Origin: Escherichia coli
GTDB taxonomy: Bacteria; Pseudomonadota; Gammaproteobacteria; Enterobacterales; Enterobacteriaceae
Assembly (NCBI RefSeq): GCF_029227855.1
Contig: NZ_CP074356.1
DNA length: 64,000 nt
Direction: 5' to 3' (one strand)
The position numbers are program-made. Shown here one piece after another: positions 51,101 to 57,100 of this stretch (its first letter is position 1; each line of letters opens with the position of its first letter).

Positions 51101-54100
51101 TTTTAAGCTATGAATCAGCGCCATTTATCACAGAATAGACTTTTACTCTGAATAAATGGGAGGGTGACTTGCCTCAATATAATCCAGACTATAACATGCC
51201 TTATAGTCTTCGGAACATCATCGCGCGCTGGCGATGATTAATAGCTAATTGAGTAAGGCCAGGATGTCAAACACGCCAATCGAGCTTAAAGGCAGTAGCT
51301 TCACTTTATCTGTGGTTCATCTGCATGAGGCAGAACCTAAGGTTATCCATCAGGCGCTGGAAGACAAAATCGCTCAGGCCCCCGCATTTTTAAAACATGC
51401 CCCCGTTGTACTCAACGTCAGTGCACTGGAAGACCCGGTAAACTGGTCAGCGATGCATAAGGCGGTTTCGGCAACCGGTTTGCGGGTTATTGGCGTAAGT
51501 GGCTGCAAAGATGCGCAACTTAAAGCCGAAATTGAAAAAATGGGGCTGCCTATCCTGACGGAAGGAAAGGAAAAAGCGCCGCGTCCAGCTCCCGCACCGC
51601 AGGCTCCAGCGCAAAATACAACGCCGGTCACAAAAACGCGTTTAATAGATACCCCGGTGCGTTCCGGTCAGCGTATTTATGCTCCACAATGTGATCTGAT
51701 TGTTACAAGCCACGTTAGCGCTGGGGCCGAATTGATTGCCGATGGTAACATTCATGTCTATGGCATGATGCGCGGTCGTGCGCTGGCAGGGGCAAGTGGT
51801 GACCGGGAAACGCAAATATTTTGCACGAACCTGATGGCGGAATTGGTGTCCATCGCAGGTGAATACTGGCTGAGTGATCAAATCCCAGCAGAATTTTATG
51901 GCAAAGCGGCGCGACTGCAGTTAGTCGAAAACGCTTTGACCGTTCAACCGTTAAATTGATCCCTTTTTAACAAGGAATTTCTATGGCACGCATTATTGTT
52001 GTTACTTCGGGCAAAGGGGGTGTTGGTAAGACAACCTCCAGCGCGGCCATCGCCACTGGTTTGGCCCAGAAGGGAAAGAAAACTGTCGTGATAGATTTTG
52101 ATATCGGCCTGCGTAATCTCGACCTGATTATGGGTTGCGAACGCCGGGTCGTTTACGATTTCGTCAACGTCATTCAGGGCGATGCAACGCTAAATCAGGC
52201 GTTAATTAAAGATAAGCGTACTGAAAATCTCTATATTCTTCCGGCATCGCAAACTCGCGATAAAGATGCCCTCACCCGTGAAGGGGTCGCCAAAGTTCTT
52301 GATGATCTGAAAGCGATGGACTTTGAATTTATTGTTTGCGACTCCCCGGCAGGGATTGAGACCGGTGCGCTAATGGCACTCTATTTTGCAGACGAAGCCA
52401 TTATTACCACCAACCCGGAAGTCTCCTCAGTACGCGACTCTGACCGTATTTTAGGCATTCTGGCGTCGAAATCACGCCGCGCAGAAAATGGCGAAGAGCC
52501 TATTAAAGAGCACCTGCTGTTAACGCGCTATAACCCAGGCCGCGTAAGCAGAGGTGACATGCTGAGCATGGAAGATGTGCTGGAGATCCTGCGCATCAAA
52601 CTCGTCGGCGTGATCCCAGAGGATCAATCAGTATTGCGCGCCTCTAACCAGGGTGAACCGGTCATTCTCGACATTAACGCCGATGCGGGTAAAGCCTACG
52701 CAGATACCGTAGAACGTCTGTTGGGAGAAGAACGTCCTTTCCGCTTCATTGAAGAAGAGAAGAAAGGCTTCCTCAAACGCTTGTTCGGAGGATAAGTTAT
52801 GGCATTACTCGATTTCTTTCTCTCGCGGAAGAAAAACACGGCCAACATTGCAAAAGAACGGCTGCAGATTATTGTTGCTGAACGCCGTCGCAGCGATGCA
52901 GAACCGCATTATCTGCCGCAGTTGCGTAAAGATATTCTTGAGGTCATTTGTAAATACGTACAAATTGATCCTGAGATGGTAACCGTACAGCTTGAGCAAA
53001 AAGATGGCGATATTTCTATTCTTGAGCTGAACGTGACCTTGCCGGAAGCAGAAGAGCTGAAATAGGCCCGCTGTAAAAGCGCATTTCTCTTCAAGGCAGA
53101 GTCATCTCTGCCTTGCGTTTTTCATCCCCCTCATCCACGTTTGATAAGAGCGGCGAGTATTCTTGCTGATGCTACTCATTGCTTCCCCCCTTTACACCTT
53201 AATGCCGTTCCCCCCACACAGATCAAATTGTTTATACCTGGCTGAGTAAATAACCTTATTGTTAGTATAGGTATACTGGGTGATGATAACCCCGCAATTT
53301 CATTATTCATTGTTCTCCCATAGGATGAGGTTTCCCGCCGTAACTGGCGGGCTTTTTTTGCCGCAGAATTTTTCCTTTTAACACCCTGTAAACGAAAACT
53401 GCGCCGAAGCGCAGTTTAATCGTTGATGGTCAGAACGACCAGTTCGCACCAGCCACCGCGTTCCACGGGGATTCCACACCGGCACCATGGCTATACCCCA
53501 CCCCGAGATGCCCGCTTAACGAACTGCTGAATGAGGCTTTAATACCTGCCTGATATATTCCACGTCTGCCCGACAAATCATTGACAAAATTACCGTCATT
53601 ATTCACTTTCACCCGGTTATCATCGACAAATTCTTTGCGCACAGCCGCCTTCAGCCACGGCTCAACTTCCATGCCGTTCCCCAGACGCATGTTGTAACTC
53701 AGCGTTGCGCCCAGTTCACGATATATACTGCGGGTATCGACTGATTTCGATTCCATACCATTGGATAAATGATATTCGGGGTTATCAGCGGTGAACCCCG
53801 TTAACGATGCATACGGCGTCAGGTTCCAGTTACCATCGGTAAATCGCATCCCGGTTTCAATGTGACCGCCCAGCCCGTTGCTGCGATAACTGCCGTTGGC
53901 GGCTCCACCGCTGCTCATTTTACCGGCTACGTTACTTTCAAAGCGGTTCAGCTTCACGATACCGTCCAGATAGAAACCACTTTCATGTTCCCAACTGGCA
54001 TAGCCGCCCAGAGAATAACTGCCCACACTGCCATGACCTCCGCGATCAAAACCGATATGTGAATGGGAATAACCCATAAAAGCGCCCAGCGTGGCAATTC

Positions 54101-57100
54101 CTTCTGGAATATCATTACGGCTGTCGATCCCCACTGTCATTCCGATCAGCGTCTGCTCAAACCCGGCACCCGCATCGGTGGTGACATTATTACGGGTGTT
54201 ATACGTCGCCCCCCAGACATTATTGTTGTGTGGACTCGCTTTCATTATGTTCAACCGCTCGCGAATACTGTTTAGCTCAGCATCAAATACCAACGGTAAT
54301 GTTGCTGCCATATTGAGTACAGCTGCCGTAGAAGGCGTGATGCGTTTCTCCGGAACGGGTGTCGGCGTTGGATCGGGAGTCGGGTCTGGATTTGGATTTG
54401 GGTTTGGGTTCGGGTTCGGGTTCGGGTTCGGGTTCGGGTTTGGATTTGGATTCGGATTTGGGTTTGGATTTGGGTTTGGGTTCGGATTTGGGTTGACATC
54501 ATTAGTCAGGTTCCAGTTGCTGTTGCCGTCGCTTTTCAGGACATACTCATAGGTCCCAAGATCAACGAAACCACCGGTATTGCCCAGCGTAAACGACGCA
54601 TCCCCTCCCCCTGTTTTCACCAGCGTCATCGCATCGTCAGACTGAGGGCTGACGCCGGTATCCTGAACAAAGATTTTAAAATTACCAGTGGCATTGTTGT
54701 TGACGACCAGTTGATCGCCCCGGGAGCCTGCAATGTTGGTATGCAGGTAGAAATTACCGCTGCCGGAAAGTTCACTGGTGGTCAGCGTATTGTAGATACC
54801 GTTAGTTGTGGCAGGCGCTGATAAATAAACATCACCGTCGTTGAGTAGCAAACTGTTTACTCTATATTCGCAGTTGCTGGTGCCTGCACAGGAATTATTG
54901 CTGTTAAGCCAGACACTGCCCCGGCTGGCAGCCGTCAGGTCGGCAAGCGTCGTATCAACGCCATTGCCGATAGTGAATGTCGCGCTATCGGTAATCCGGA
55001 TCGCCCCTTCGAGTTTAACTGGCGTAACATTATCCCGTGGCGTCATTAACGACAGGCTTCCTGTCGCGCCACTGACCGATGCATCCGCCAGCGTACCTGC
55101 GTAGACGATTGCTGTCCCGCCAGCAACCTGGAGATCTTCTGCCCGGGCCAGAGCCTGAAACTCATCTTTTGACCGCCCAAGGGTATATTGCCCACCAGAG
55201 TTAACCTTTGTGGCGGAGTCCTGACCCAGGTTTTGCATTGCACCACCCTTGTCAACCGTGGAGTCACGGGCTTCGGTACCTGCTAATACCAATAAATTAC
55301 CGCCATTTTCCAGCAACATATTGGTCGCTAAATTGCTGGCAATGGAAAAGGTGCCGTACTGGTGCGTACCGCTGATTTCAATACCGTTAGCCGTGCTCGT
55401 CTGGAGAGCGGCACCGCTGTTCTGGACGATATCTGTCGCTTTGCCATTATCGTTGACTGTCAGCGTTCCGCCTTCATTGATCGTTGTTTTTATTGCCTCT
55501 CCGTTAGCTGAAACTGTTTGTATTCCGCCGTCGTTAATTGTTGTCTCATTTGCCACACCCTCGACGATTTGTTCACCGCCAGTGAGCGTCGTGCCTGTCG
55601 CAGTGGCTTTTGTTTTGACGATCTCCCGACCGCCCGCATTGACCTGTGTTTTGGCGGAAGTGGTGTCTGACTCCACGGTTAACACGCCGCCATTTGTCAG
55701 CAGGATATTGTTCGCCGCACCCTGCTCGATGCTGAACGCGACGCCATCAGCGCGTGTCCCTGTGACCCGCGTCGCCCTGGTGGTTGCAACCAACGCGCCC
55801 TGACTACTCTGCTGTATCCCCGTTGCGCTGCCTTTCTCCCGCACATCGAGTATGCCGCCATTGTTAAGTCTGGTGGTATATGCTACGGCCTCCTCGTGGA
55901 CAATCAGCTTACCGCCAGCATCAACGATGGTATCTACCGCCGAGGTTTGAGCTACGACCGTCAGTTGGCCGGTATTTTCCAGCACAACATGCTCAGCCCT
56001 GCCTCCGGTAATAGTGAAGTGAGATGACCTCTGGTATCCATCAATATCAGTCCCCGCGCCCGTGTTGGCAACTAAAGCACTCCCCGTGTCCAGGTAAACC
56101 CCATGTGCGATACCGCCGGTATCGACAATCAGCGTGCCTCCGGCACGAATATTGCTGCCAGTTGCCGTACCTCCTTTCTCAACAACCTGCTTGCTCCCGG
56201 AAGAGATATTTGTTGTGTCAGCTTTCCCGCCGCTCTTGATATTTTGCGTGCCACTGTTGATATTAGTTCCCGTAGCAATACCATGATTATAAATATTCTG
56301 TGTACCGCCATTAATTATGGTATTAGTCGCGTTCCCGGCAACATCCATGGCCCCGCCGTTATCTATTCGGGTCGCATCAGCTTTAGCATTCGTTAAAACT
56401 GACATTGTTCCTTTATCGTTAATTATCGTCCCTGTAGAAATTCCTCCCTCACTAATTGTCTGGCTGCCACCGTTAATGACTGTATTATTAGCCTGCCCCT
56501 GATAAGAGCCATGACCAGATACCTCTTGATGTCCACCAGTATCAATAACACTTCCATTAGAAATCCCGCCATATACCTCCTGATTGCCGTGATTGATGAT
56601 ATGAGCATTATTTGTTGTACCTCGTTCATCTACTCTTTGGCTGCCGTCTACAGTCTCATCATTTACAACGCCAATAACATTAGAAGTGAAGGCCGTCATC
56701 CCAGGCGGGGCATATATCATGGCAGCTATCAATAAGGAAAGTACTGAGCGGTGAAAATAATAGCGACTGATTCTGTTCATAAATTTCATCCTCTGAAAAA
56801 TGAATACTGAGTACTGAGTAGCGTCTAAGTAACCTAAGCTCGGCTGCAACATCAGCCCGCAGGCACCAGACCAGGGGATTCATCCTGAAGAGACAGCGCA
56901 GGTGTATTGTGTTCACCGCTCACCAAAGACATCATGATGAAATGATGATATCCCGCATAATAAAGAGGCATTTTTTAAACGCAATGCGCTGAAGTGTAGT
57001 TGGATAAAAAATCACTCTTTTCAGATAATACTGTCGTACGCTTATCTTTCGACAATGAGGCCGTCGGCAAAATAAAATGACTAATGTAATCGTTGCTGAT

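Follow-up and report, generated by a model that had tools for sequence, protein, structure and literature searches.

YpjA of Escherichia coli K-12 (b2647), the EhaD of EHEC, is an AIDA-type autotransporter of 1526 aa encoded on the CP4-57 island, near ssrA/smpB and adjoining yfjZ-ypjF. Adhesion and biofilm formation are linked to YpjA in the statements on it in PMC3796261 (citing work of 2005) and PMC9289746, and EhaD was reported to raise biofilm formation (PMC12547504). At a second chromosomal position, between ymgJ and minE, MG1655 holds just a 344-bp pseudogene, ycgI (b4521). Here we analysed a 64,000-nucleotide stretch of an E. coli genome (contig NZ_CP074356.1; the window), in which an earlier sequence-only reading had placed an AIDA-like autotransporter gene at this position. 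The flanks were as that reading had described them, with minCDE on one side and ymgJ/ymgI/ymgG/ymgD on the other. The gene is very probably an intact chromosomal classical (type Va) autotransporter gene of the AIDA-I/Ag43 group, the full-length allele of the ycgI locus and a close paralogue of YpjA/EhaD.

Reading frame and protein architecture

The ORF listing gave a single open frame of 1140 codons from ATG at window positions 53430-56852 on the minus strand. Its translation contained no internal stops; with 3/64 stops expected per codon, a run of 1140 codons without a stop has a probability of about 1.7e-24. The frame of 1116-1140 aa that had been proposed is therefore real, while its description as “1.1-kDa-class” was an error, the protein being of 115.6 kDa (118.4 kDa for the 1140-aa version). 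The ATG at 56780 is the likely start, giving a product of 1116 aa that opens with MNRISR (CDS with stop codon, 53430..56780, minus strand). A Shine-Dalgarno motif, GAGGA, lies 8 nt upstream, and PGAP chose the equivalent ATG in the 99.9%-identical record NZ_CP098217.1. The additional 24 codons (56780 to 56852) are without conservation: stop codons close them in both K-12 ypjA and E. albertii, while in LSU61 a 7-nt indel throws them out of frame. RefSeq names the product of the 99.9%-identical gene “adhesin-like autotransporter YpjA/EhaD” (WP_135155397.1). The minE-ymgJ autotransporter is of a well-known kind, already annotated in RefSeq, and is not a discovery; our literature search found no description of a minE-ymgJ paralogue of YpjA.

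Translation of the CDS gave passenger, linker and barrel in one frame, as the sequence-only reading had claimed, with Pfam, the NCBIfam model TIGR01414 and the AlphaFold model (AF2) in agreement; all parts lie on the minus strand. A putative signal peptide at about residues 1-30 (56691..56780), MNRISRYYFHRSVLSLLIAAMIYAPPGMTA with FTSN after the cut, was recognized by eye from a basic n-region, a hydrophobic core and a small-residue c-region. The N-terminus aligns with that of K-12 YpjA, whose signal peptide has 29 aa (PMC13101318), and AF2 pLDDT is below 50 over residues 1-30. The passenger (residues 31-760; 54501..56690) is predicted to be a right-handed beta-helix of AIDA-type repeats followed by a pertactin-like junction/autochaperone domain. 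Pfam AIDA repeats (PF16168) cover residues 94-530 (55191-56501), six of them with E < 1e-3, and the NCBIfam repeat TIGR04415 occurs in six stretches (128 bits against a cut-off of 30). The Pfam pertactin domain (PF03212) occupies residues 641-759 (54504-54860; E = 1.3e-46), and a small loop between Cys631 and Cys637 is possible. Sequence matches in the PDB were Ag43, TibA, BrkA and pertactin, and the best Foldseek matches of the passenger were Ag43 (7KO9/7KOH/4KH3; E = 1e-20) and TibA (4Q1Q). In the AF2 model (mean pLDDT 78.9), a passenger made entirely of short strands is followed by a helix and a 12-strand barrel.

Between passenger and transport unit lies a proline-rich linker (residues 763-810; 54351..54494), (NP)18 followed by DPTPDPTPTPVP, defined by TRF, allele comparison and AF2. 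Its pLDDT of about 40 indicates disorder, and its DNA is an in-frame 6-nt microsatellite (TRF array 54382-54494, period 6, 18.8 copies). Among the other four alleles the NP copy number ranges from about 16 to 35, and the match lengths of relatives vary in multiples of 6 nt. The AF2 helix at residues 816-846 (54243..54335) is an alpha-helical linker at the predicted barrel-pore position. Residues 853-1116 (53433..54224), ending in GANWSF, form the predicted 12-stranded outer-membrane beta-barrel, with 12 long AF2 strands across residues 853-1115. Here the autotransporter beta-domain PF03797 matched residues 855-1094 (E = 1.3e-45) and TIGR01414 gave E = 8e-97 (325 bits against a cut-off of 16). 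In Foldseek, the transport unit superposed on the beta-domains of BrkA, EspP and AIDA-I, with a target TM-score of 0.91 for the barrel against BrkA 3QQ2. The protein thus has the C-terminal 12-stranded barrel, the preceding alpha-helical linker and the C-terminal aromatic residue (F) of type Va autotransporters, together with the AIDA-type repeat beta-helix and pertactin-like junction/autochaperone domain of the AIDA-I-type/self-associating group.

With Ag43, AIDA-I and TibA it has in common the TIGR04415/PF16168 repeats, an L-shaped or straight beta-helix, the pertactin-like junction and the 12-strand barrel, but identity to them is just about 20-35%. Assignment to Antigen 43/Cah proper was rejected (NF033177, 185 bits against a cut-off of 1200), as was assignment to AIDA-I/TibA proper (NF033176, 159 bits against 1200). 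No heptosyltransferase gene of the aah/tibC type was found among the neighbours minE and ymgJ/ymgI.

By what is established for type Va secretion, the signal peptide of about 30 aa would direct Sec export, and BAM (with TAM) would place the C-terminal barrel of 12 strands in the outer membrane, where helix 816-846 would fill the barrel pore. The passenger (about 74 kDa) would thread out C-terminus first and fold from the pertactin-like autochaperone domain into a surface-retained beta-helix; the disordered (NP)n/Pro-rich stretch would serve as a spacer whose length varies between strains. By analogy with YpjA/EhaD, and because of the literature on their roles, we propose that the surface beta-helix may help cells to adhere and form biofilms, and perhaps to aggregate with one another. 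Beta-helical passengers have many different activities, and the barrel and junction resemble those of BrkA, Vag8 and pertactin, so that a function other than adhesion, such as serum resistance as in BrkA, or protease or toxin activity, has to be weighed. Yet neither Pfam nor NCBIfam revealed a protease, lipase or toxin domain, and the passenger matched best to Ag43, TibA and AIDA-I, all self-associating adhesins. Together with the links to adhesion and biofilm formation drawn for YpjA, the 91%-identical paralogue, in PMC3796261 and PMC9289746, this leaves a non-adhesive role quite improbable.

Relation to YpjA/EhaD

The protein is 90.9% identical to YpjA over 1106 aligned residues and has in common with it the putative signal peptide, repeat type, pertactin-like domain, barrel and RefSeq product name. 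Homology extends throughout the ypjA cassette, reaching 10 nt beyond the stop codon on one side and about 400 nt ahead of the start on the other, and takes in a 39-aa upstream ORF. The loci differ, the window gene being in the core genome between minE and ymgJ and ypjA on its island. Since the gene does not lie by ypjF/yfjZ, positional orthology with ypjA was rejected; by position it corresponds to ycgI, and ypjA is its paralogue.

Despite the high identity, the 1526-aa length and the repeat complement of YpjA were not found in the 1116-aa protein. Two repeat blocks are absent: one of about 217 aa would follow residue 117, the other, of about 199 aa, residue 308. With these approximately 420 aa missing, the “full passenger” of the sequence-only reading is a relative term. 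In addition, the first 300 residues have diverged from YpjA (dN/dS 0.6-0.9 in places), the pure (NP)18 linker contrasts with mixed KP/DP/NP in YpjA, and the terminators of the two genes differ. The passengers of YpjA and of the E. albertii protein described below are about 420 aa longer, and the function of the window protein could be altered or weakened by the difference.

A single deletion, ancestry and distribution

Blastn against BL21 and alignment of the junction showed that a 3042-bp segment (53775..56816, minus strand), which begins 36 nt ahead of the start codon and reaches codon 1002, is absent from K-12-type genomes, which keep window positions 53430-53774 as ycgI. The pseudogene has the same locus and flanking genes and matches the last 344 nt (about 114 codons) of the full gene with one frameshift; gone are the ribosome-binding site, start codon, entire passenger, linker and most of the barrel. 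The window gene is the un-deleted allele of ycgI, and the supposition that K-12 carries only a remnant of a related locus was borne out by this alignment to the 3' end. The junction, GGATAAATGATA|GTAGCGTCTAAG, carries a 2-nt (TA) microhomology and is identical in K-12, BL21, NRG857c (B2) and PD23, so the full gene is older than one single deletion. Larger deletions occur at the locus in some genomes, e.g. XYEH3783.

Furthermore, E. albertii has an open 1475-aa AIDA-repeat autotransporter (P0009) between ymgI and minE, in the same slot and orientation and with the same architecture, so that the presence of an autotransporter here is ancestral. The leader block and the region of the ribosome-binding site are conserved as well. 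Identity to the window gene is about 60% (amino acid) and 71% (nucleotide), with dS > 1.6. The E. albertii protein is longer, with residues in 338 of the 420 columns present in YpjA and absent from the window gene; all five E. coli alleles sampled at the locus have the same two repeat-block gaps (about 420 aa). The shared junction and this counterpart uphold the earlier suggestion of a retained ancestral adhesin.

The full gene is kept in approximately 422 of 5426 complete E. coli genomes (7.8%; those covering at least 80% of a 6.4-kb query), and 405 genomes carry the locus-specific N-terminal tag at an identity of 95% or more. Because about 92% of complete genomes have lost it by deletion, the gene is dispensable. 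Carriers include ST38-type strains and sorbitol-fermenting or atypical O157 strains; it is present in O157:H7 LSU61, 493/89 and PV15-279 and absent in typical O157:H7 such as EC4115.

This patchiness within lineages would also fit a full gene that was not kept vertically, having been rebuilt by gene conversion from ypjA or imported by homologous recombination from another lineage. The ypjA homology found by blastn covers window 53420-57175, hence both flanks of the deletion. Over residues 301-1116, dS against K-12 ypjA lies mostly at 0.06-0.12 (0.40 for residues 701-800, the linker block), about equal to that between the window and LSU61 alleles, and in the central 1.6 kb the identities of the ypjA and ycgI loci overlap at 93-96%. 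The first 300 codons, however, are locus-specific (dS 0.18-0.46 against ypjA, 0-0.03 between locus alleles), a 286-nt N-terminal tag splits cleanly into at least 95% (405 genomes) and 80-90% (963 genomes) classes, and the two repeat-block gaps and the pure (NP)n linker are common to all locus alleles and absent from ypjA. These features exclude conversion of the whole gene. Rebuilding or import appears possible but the lesser probability, next to an old allele that escaped deletion. It is likely that the 3' two-thirds have undergone partial exchange and that the intact allele has spread laterally among lineages; the nature of the gene is unchanged either way.

Leader region and terminator

The 5' leader and promoter region (56781..57178, minus strand), delimited from the sequence and a promoter scan, contains the 39-aa upstream ORF (56852-56971) and the annotated ymgJ (56932-57117). 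Two sigma-70-like sites (57178-57150 and 57052-57025) are candidate promoters by consensus match only; the scan upstream of the autotransporter gave no strong match, and the region is AT-rich (36% GC at 57000-57499). A leader block of about 100 nt (56852-56951), covering the 39-codon ORF, is conserved upstream of the minE-ymgJ gene, ypjA and the E. albertii counterpart, with 78-90% identity between the window and E. albertii and about 50% on either side. Speculatively, and with rather low confidence, this block might be a cis-regulatory element of the autotransporter family (a leader RNA, leader peptide or protein-binding site), and the in-frame (NP)16-35 microsatellite might tune the projection of the adhesin from the surface. 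Downstream, sequence and folding revealed a probable intrinsic terminator (53388..53417, minus strand), the hairpin AAACUGCGC-UUCG-GCGCAGUUU followed by UCGUUU, 13 nt past the stop codon. Its fold energy is -20.6 kcal/mol (z = -4.4), equalled by 0 of 200 shuffles; owing to its weak U-tract, the terminator was missed by the consensus scan.

Selection and functional state

All five fetched alleles, the window not counted, are intact, and they come from dog, deer, human, fresh water and chicken; among the 60 nearest records, one (H131) has an IS1 insertion in the gene. The dN/dS among alleles was 0.07-0.12, at a dS between alleles of about 0.06-0.10. A dN/dS below 1 reflects past constraint and not present activity in the window strain. 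The alleles at the minE-ymgJ locus are under purifying selection, and this ratio argues for a functional protein.

An intact yet cryptic gene is conceivable, one not transcribed under ordinary conditions and heading for loss, its open frame a sign of recency and not of function. Its deletion from about 92% of complete genomes, in some by the larger deletions (XYEH3783), the IS1 insertion in the close relative H131, the AT-rich upstream region and the promoter scan without a strong match would agree with this. We nevertheless consider it doubtful, given the low dN/dS at that allelic divergence, the open frames of all five alleles despite very different hosts and sources and the open E. albertii counterpart; moreover, laboratory silence would be compatible with function in the host. 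We therefore favour a gene that is real and whose product, judging from sequence, is probably functional, so that the “possibly functional” of the sequence-only reading gains support, of an indirect kind, from the dN/dS among alleles.

Significance

The significance of the finding is modest: it is ordinary and already known, and opens no new biological question. Since RefSeq names the window gene “ypjA”, genome surveys of ypjA/ehaD can mix up two paralogues, which adhesin-typing tools should tell apart; the first approximately 300 nt suffice for this. The locus adds one more candidate colonisation/biofilm factor and surface-display scaffold. K-12 ycgI is the stump of a YpjA-like adhesin that about 8% of complete E. 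coli genomes still carry in intact form, a tidy case of a single ancient deletion polymorphism persisting in the species.

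Results

Between minE and ymgJ, mechanical ORF calling gives a minus-strand frame at 53430..56852 (1140 aa, ATG start) whose translation contains no internal stop; at 3/64 stops per codon, 1140 open codons would arise by chance with a probability of about 1.7e-24. The length of 1116-1140 aa proposed by the sequence-only reading reflects two candidate ATG codons, at 56780 and 56852. The former (MNRISRYYFHRS...) lies 8 nt downstream of a GAGGA Shine-Dalgarno sequence, aligns with the starts of K-12 YpjA, encoded by a close paralogue at another locus, and of the Escherichia albertii protein, and is equivalent to the PGAP start in the 99.9%-identical record NZ_CP098217.1. 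The start at 56852 was rejected, as the 24-codon extension shows no coding conservation: a TAA or TGA ends its frame within six codons in both ypjA and E. albertii, and LSU61, an O157:H7 strain with another allele of the locus, has a 7-nt indel that shifts the reading frame. For this reason 53430-56780 was taken as the putative coding region, with a predicted product of 1116 aa and a computed mass of 115.6 kDa, the “1.1-kDa” in the title of the sequence-only reading being a slip. In the CB6837 allele (NZ_CM144248.1, gene 1434-4712) PGAP placed the start 24 codons downstream (MIYAPPG...), so that most of the signal peptide is missing from the annotated protein. The upstream ATGAACAGAATC start is present in this allele together with its Shine-Dalgarno sequence, and the shorter call is an annotation inconsistency, a different choice of start codon only.

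Pfam analysis detected AIDA repeats at residues 94-530 (six with E < 1e-3), a Pertactin domain at 641-759 (E = 1.3e-46), a proline-rich segment (759-825) and an Autotransporter beta-domain at 855-1094 (E = 1.3e-45). Among the NCBIfam models, TIGR01414 (autotransporter barrel; cut-off 16) scored 325 bits and TIGR04415 (strand-loop-strand repeat; cut-off 30) scored 128 bits. The equivalog models for Ag43, AIDA-I, YfaL and BafA all stayed far under their cut-offs. The nearest solved structures by sequence were Ag43, TibA, BrkA, Vag8 and pertactin. An AlphaFold2 model built from a 36-sequence alignment (mean pLDDT 78.9) predicted no structure for the N-terminal residues 1-30, short beta-strands all along residues 38-760, disorder at 762-808, a single long helix (816-846) and twelve long strands (853-1115), and the protein ends in ...NWSF. 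Foldseek matched the passenger to Ag43 (E about 1e-20) and TibA, and the C-terminal unit to the beta-domains of BrkA, EspP and AIDA-I, with a TM-score of 0.91 for the BrkA target. Profiles, model and structural search thus agree with the initial description of an AIDA-like autotransporter with passenger, linker and barrel in one frame, and the predicted anatomy is that of a classical type Va protein of the AIDA-I/Ag43 group. A hairpin at 53388-53417, 13 nt past the stop codon (z = -4.4), is a plausible terminator. The linker is encoded by an in-frame 6-nt microsatellite, (AAC-CCN)n, identified by TRF at 54382-54494 (-) and translated as (NP)n, with 18 NP units in this allele and about 16 to 35 in other alleles of the locus. 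The length of the locus varies among relatives in multiples of 6 nt; this alters the linker length and leaves the reading frame intact.

The gene is flanked on one side by minC-minD-minE and on the other, in order, by a 39-aa ORF, ymgJ, ymgI, ymgG, ymgD and ycgH. The ymgJ-minE interval of MG1655 holds only the 344-bp pseudogene ycgI (b4521), and the corresponding stump in BL21 and NRG857c is described by PGAP as a frameshifted autotransporter beta-barrel fragment with the N-terminus missing. As the sequence-only reading had proposed, K-12 keeps just a remnant here: by alignment, genomes of the K-12 type are without 53775-56816 (3042 bp), a gap that opens 36 nt ahead of the ATG and closes at codon 1002, with a 2-nt microhomology at the deletion ends. 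The junction of GGATAAATGATA and GTAGCGTCTAAG is identical in K-12, BL21, the B2 strain NRG857c and PD23, which indicates a single deletion that was either inherited or passed on through recombination. A second, larger deletion was found in XYEH3783 (NZ_CP110996.1); it has removed the whole minE-ymgI interval, and with it the ycgI stump, the 39-aa ORF and ymgJ. For typical O157:H7 genomes, the query with the leader, the region 5' of the autotransporter gene, matched one place only, which suggests a similar loss.

Upstream of the gene, a leader block of about 100 nt (56852-56951, minus strand) is 78-90% identical to E. albertii, with about 50% identity on both sides, and is also kept upstream of ypjA. 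As ymgJ falls in these flanks, it is doubtful as a gene. No Rfam family matched the leader credibly (best E = 0.89, far under the gathering scores), which led us to reject a known RNA, and the predicted leader fold shows no unusual stability (z = -0.75). A conserved peptide was likewise rejected: the 39-aa ORF overlapping the block, “hypothetical” in PGAP and mis-named “ATPase” in other sources, was found only in Escherichia and Shigella, is variable with C-termini frameshifted in some variants, and differs from its ypjA copy at six nucleotides, all six non-synonymous as read off the alignment. Candidate promoters at 57178-57150 and 57052-57025 are consensus-level matches only.

The K-12 ypjA gene (4581 nt) adjoins yfjZ-ypjF in the CP4-57 region and is homologous to 53420-57175, from just past the stop to about 400 nt 5' of the start, a span that takes in the 39-aa ORF and most of “ymgJ”. 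Identity is 94.7% over the 3' 2.4 kb and 85-87% in the 5' part. For codons 1-300, dS to ypjA is 0.18-0.46 with dN/dS up to 0.6-0.9, and dS between two alleles of the ycgI locus is 0-0.03. For codons 301-1116, dS to ypjA is mostly 0.06-0.12 (0.40 in the linker block 701-800) and no greater than between alleles of the ycgI locus; in the central 1.6 kb the identities of the two classes overlap. Replacement of the whole gene by ypjA, or its conversion, was ruled out by the locus-specific N-terminus, the shared gaps and the linker, which is pure (NP)n here in contrast to the mixed KP/DP/NP of YpjA. The simplest reading of these comparisons is a duplication within Escherichia, after which the N-terminal passenger diverged and the 3' two-thirds went on being exchanged.

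Among the matches listed in the protein search, mostly fragments, was a 1475-aa “AIDA repeat-containing protein” of E. albertii, and the contig look-up placed its gene between ymgI/ymgG/ymgD and minE, convergent with minE, in the same arrangement. Because of this matching position, the presence of an autotransporter in the ymgI-minE slot predates the split of E. coli and E. albertii, which bears out the earlier proposal of an ancestral adhesin. The E. albertii protein is only about 60% identical to the E. coli one (dS > 1.6); such divergence is usual for surface proteins. It carries residues in 338 of the 420 columns that are filled by YpjA and empty in the ycgI-locus gene. Parsimony would place the loss of two repeat blocks, after residues 117 and 308, in the E. 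coli alleles of the locus, the repeat alignments on which this is based being ambiguous.

The full gene was found in 422 of 5426 complete genomes at ≥ 80% coverage of a 6.4-kb query, of which the deleted locus covers 52% and the paralogue 59%, so that neither reaches the threshold. A 286-nt N-terminal tag with no 28-mer in common with K-12 ypjA matched 405 genomes at ≥ 95% identity and 963 at 80-90% (the ypjA class). From these two counts we estimate that about 7.5-7.8% of complete genomes retain the full gene. Among the carriers are numerous strains near one named “ST38”, dog, chicken, gull and river-water isolates, and the O157:H7 strains 493/89, PV15-279 and LSU61; typical O157:H7 (EC4115, FRIK2533) have ypjA only. 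All five alleles examined are open (1116 to 1152 aa) with no frame disruption seen; among the 60 nearest records, one carries the gene with an IS1 inserted in it. An exact-sequence cluster look-up returned no entry for the protein in the collection. A contig scan for outgroups yielded only a 2.5-kb contig of a Collinsella sp. MAG (JAIJJM010000485.1), which encodes residues 1-804 at 98% identity and is almost certainly an E. coli binning contaminant.

Further features were observed elsewhere in the window. Relative to the otherwise 99%-identical NZ_CP098217.1, a 703-bp insertion (40938-41640) lies between ycgB and fadR and carries an ORF (41041-41550, minus strand) whose product, MGNEKSLAHTRWNCKYHIVFAPKYRR..., looks like an IS200-family Y1 transposase. 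Adjoining dadX is a 478-aa ORF (35083-36519, plus strand), “hypothetical” in the relative and not known from K-12. Over residues 150-353 its product is similar to the leucine-rich-repeat region of two type III effectors, SlrP and SspH2 (E = 5e-22, well short of the cut-off); neither a ubiquitin-ligase part nor a PADLOC match was detected in this ORF.

A second autotransporter gene in the window, ycgH (58132-60795, minus strand), is intact and encodes 887 aa (TIGR01414, 372 bits); PGAP names it “autotransporter YcgH” in the near-identical record. Since ycgH is a pseudogene in K-12 (b4491), and also in BL21 and LSU61, the strain keeps two autotransporters that K-12 lost, and these flank ymgJ-ymgI-ymgG-ymgD.

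Discussion

Since dN/dS among alleles of the locus is 0.07-0.12, purifying selection has acted here on a protein. By analogy, it may work like Ag43, AIDA-I, TibA and YpjA. According to the general type Va model, the protein would be exported by Sec, its barrel would be inserted by BAM/TAM, and the passenger would be threaded C-to-N, with folding nucleated by the autochaperone domain. Unlike Ag43 and AIDA-I, it fails the equivalog tests for these proteins, and an adjacent heptosyltransferase gene is absent. A role in adhesion or biofilm formation rests on homology: YpjA was linked to both in work from 2005, as cited in PMC3796261, it was classed among biofilm-forming autotransporter adhesins (PMC9289746), and EhaD/YpjA was reported to enhance biofilm formation of O157:H7 (PMC12547504). 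Our literature search, which included ycgI, found no paper on this paralogue, and a search for UpaI returned nothing relevant; AatB surfaced solely in papers on APEC in general; UpaE, a 271-kDa protein located in the ipuS operon, was rejected as a candidate.

By sequence, the protein belongs to the YpjA/EhaD family, as named by RefSeq; by position, the gene is the full-length allele of ycgI and not the orthologue of ypjA. Public annotation already covers the gene, as WP_135155397.1 and relatives in some 400 RefSeq genomes, and also shows what the K-12 stump is. The original observation and its interpretation were essentially right and the finding is an ordinary one, its practical use being mainly that surveys counting “ypjA” can mix up two paralogues.
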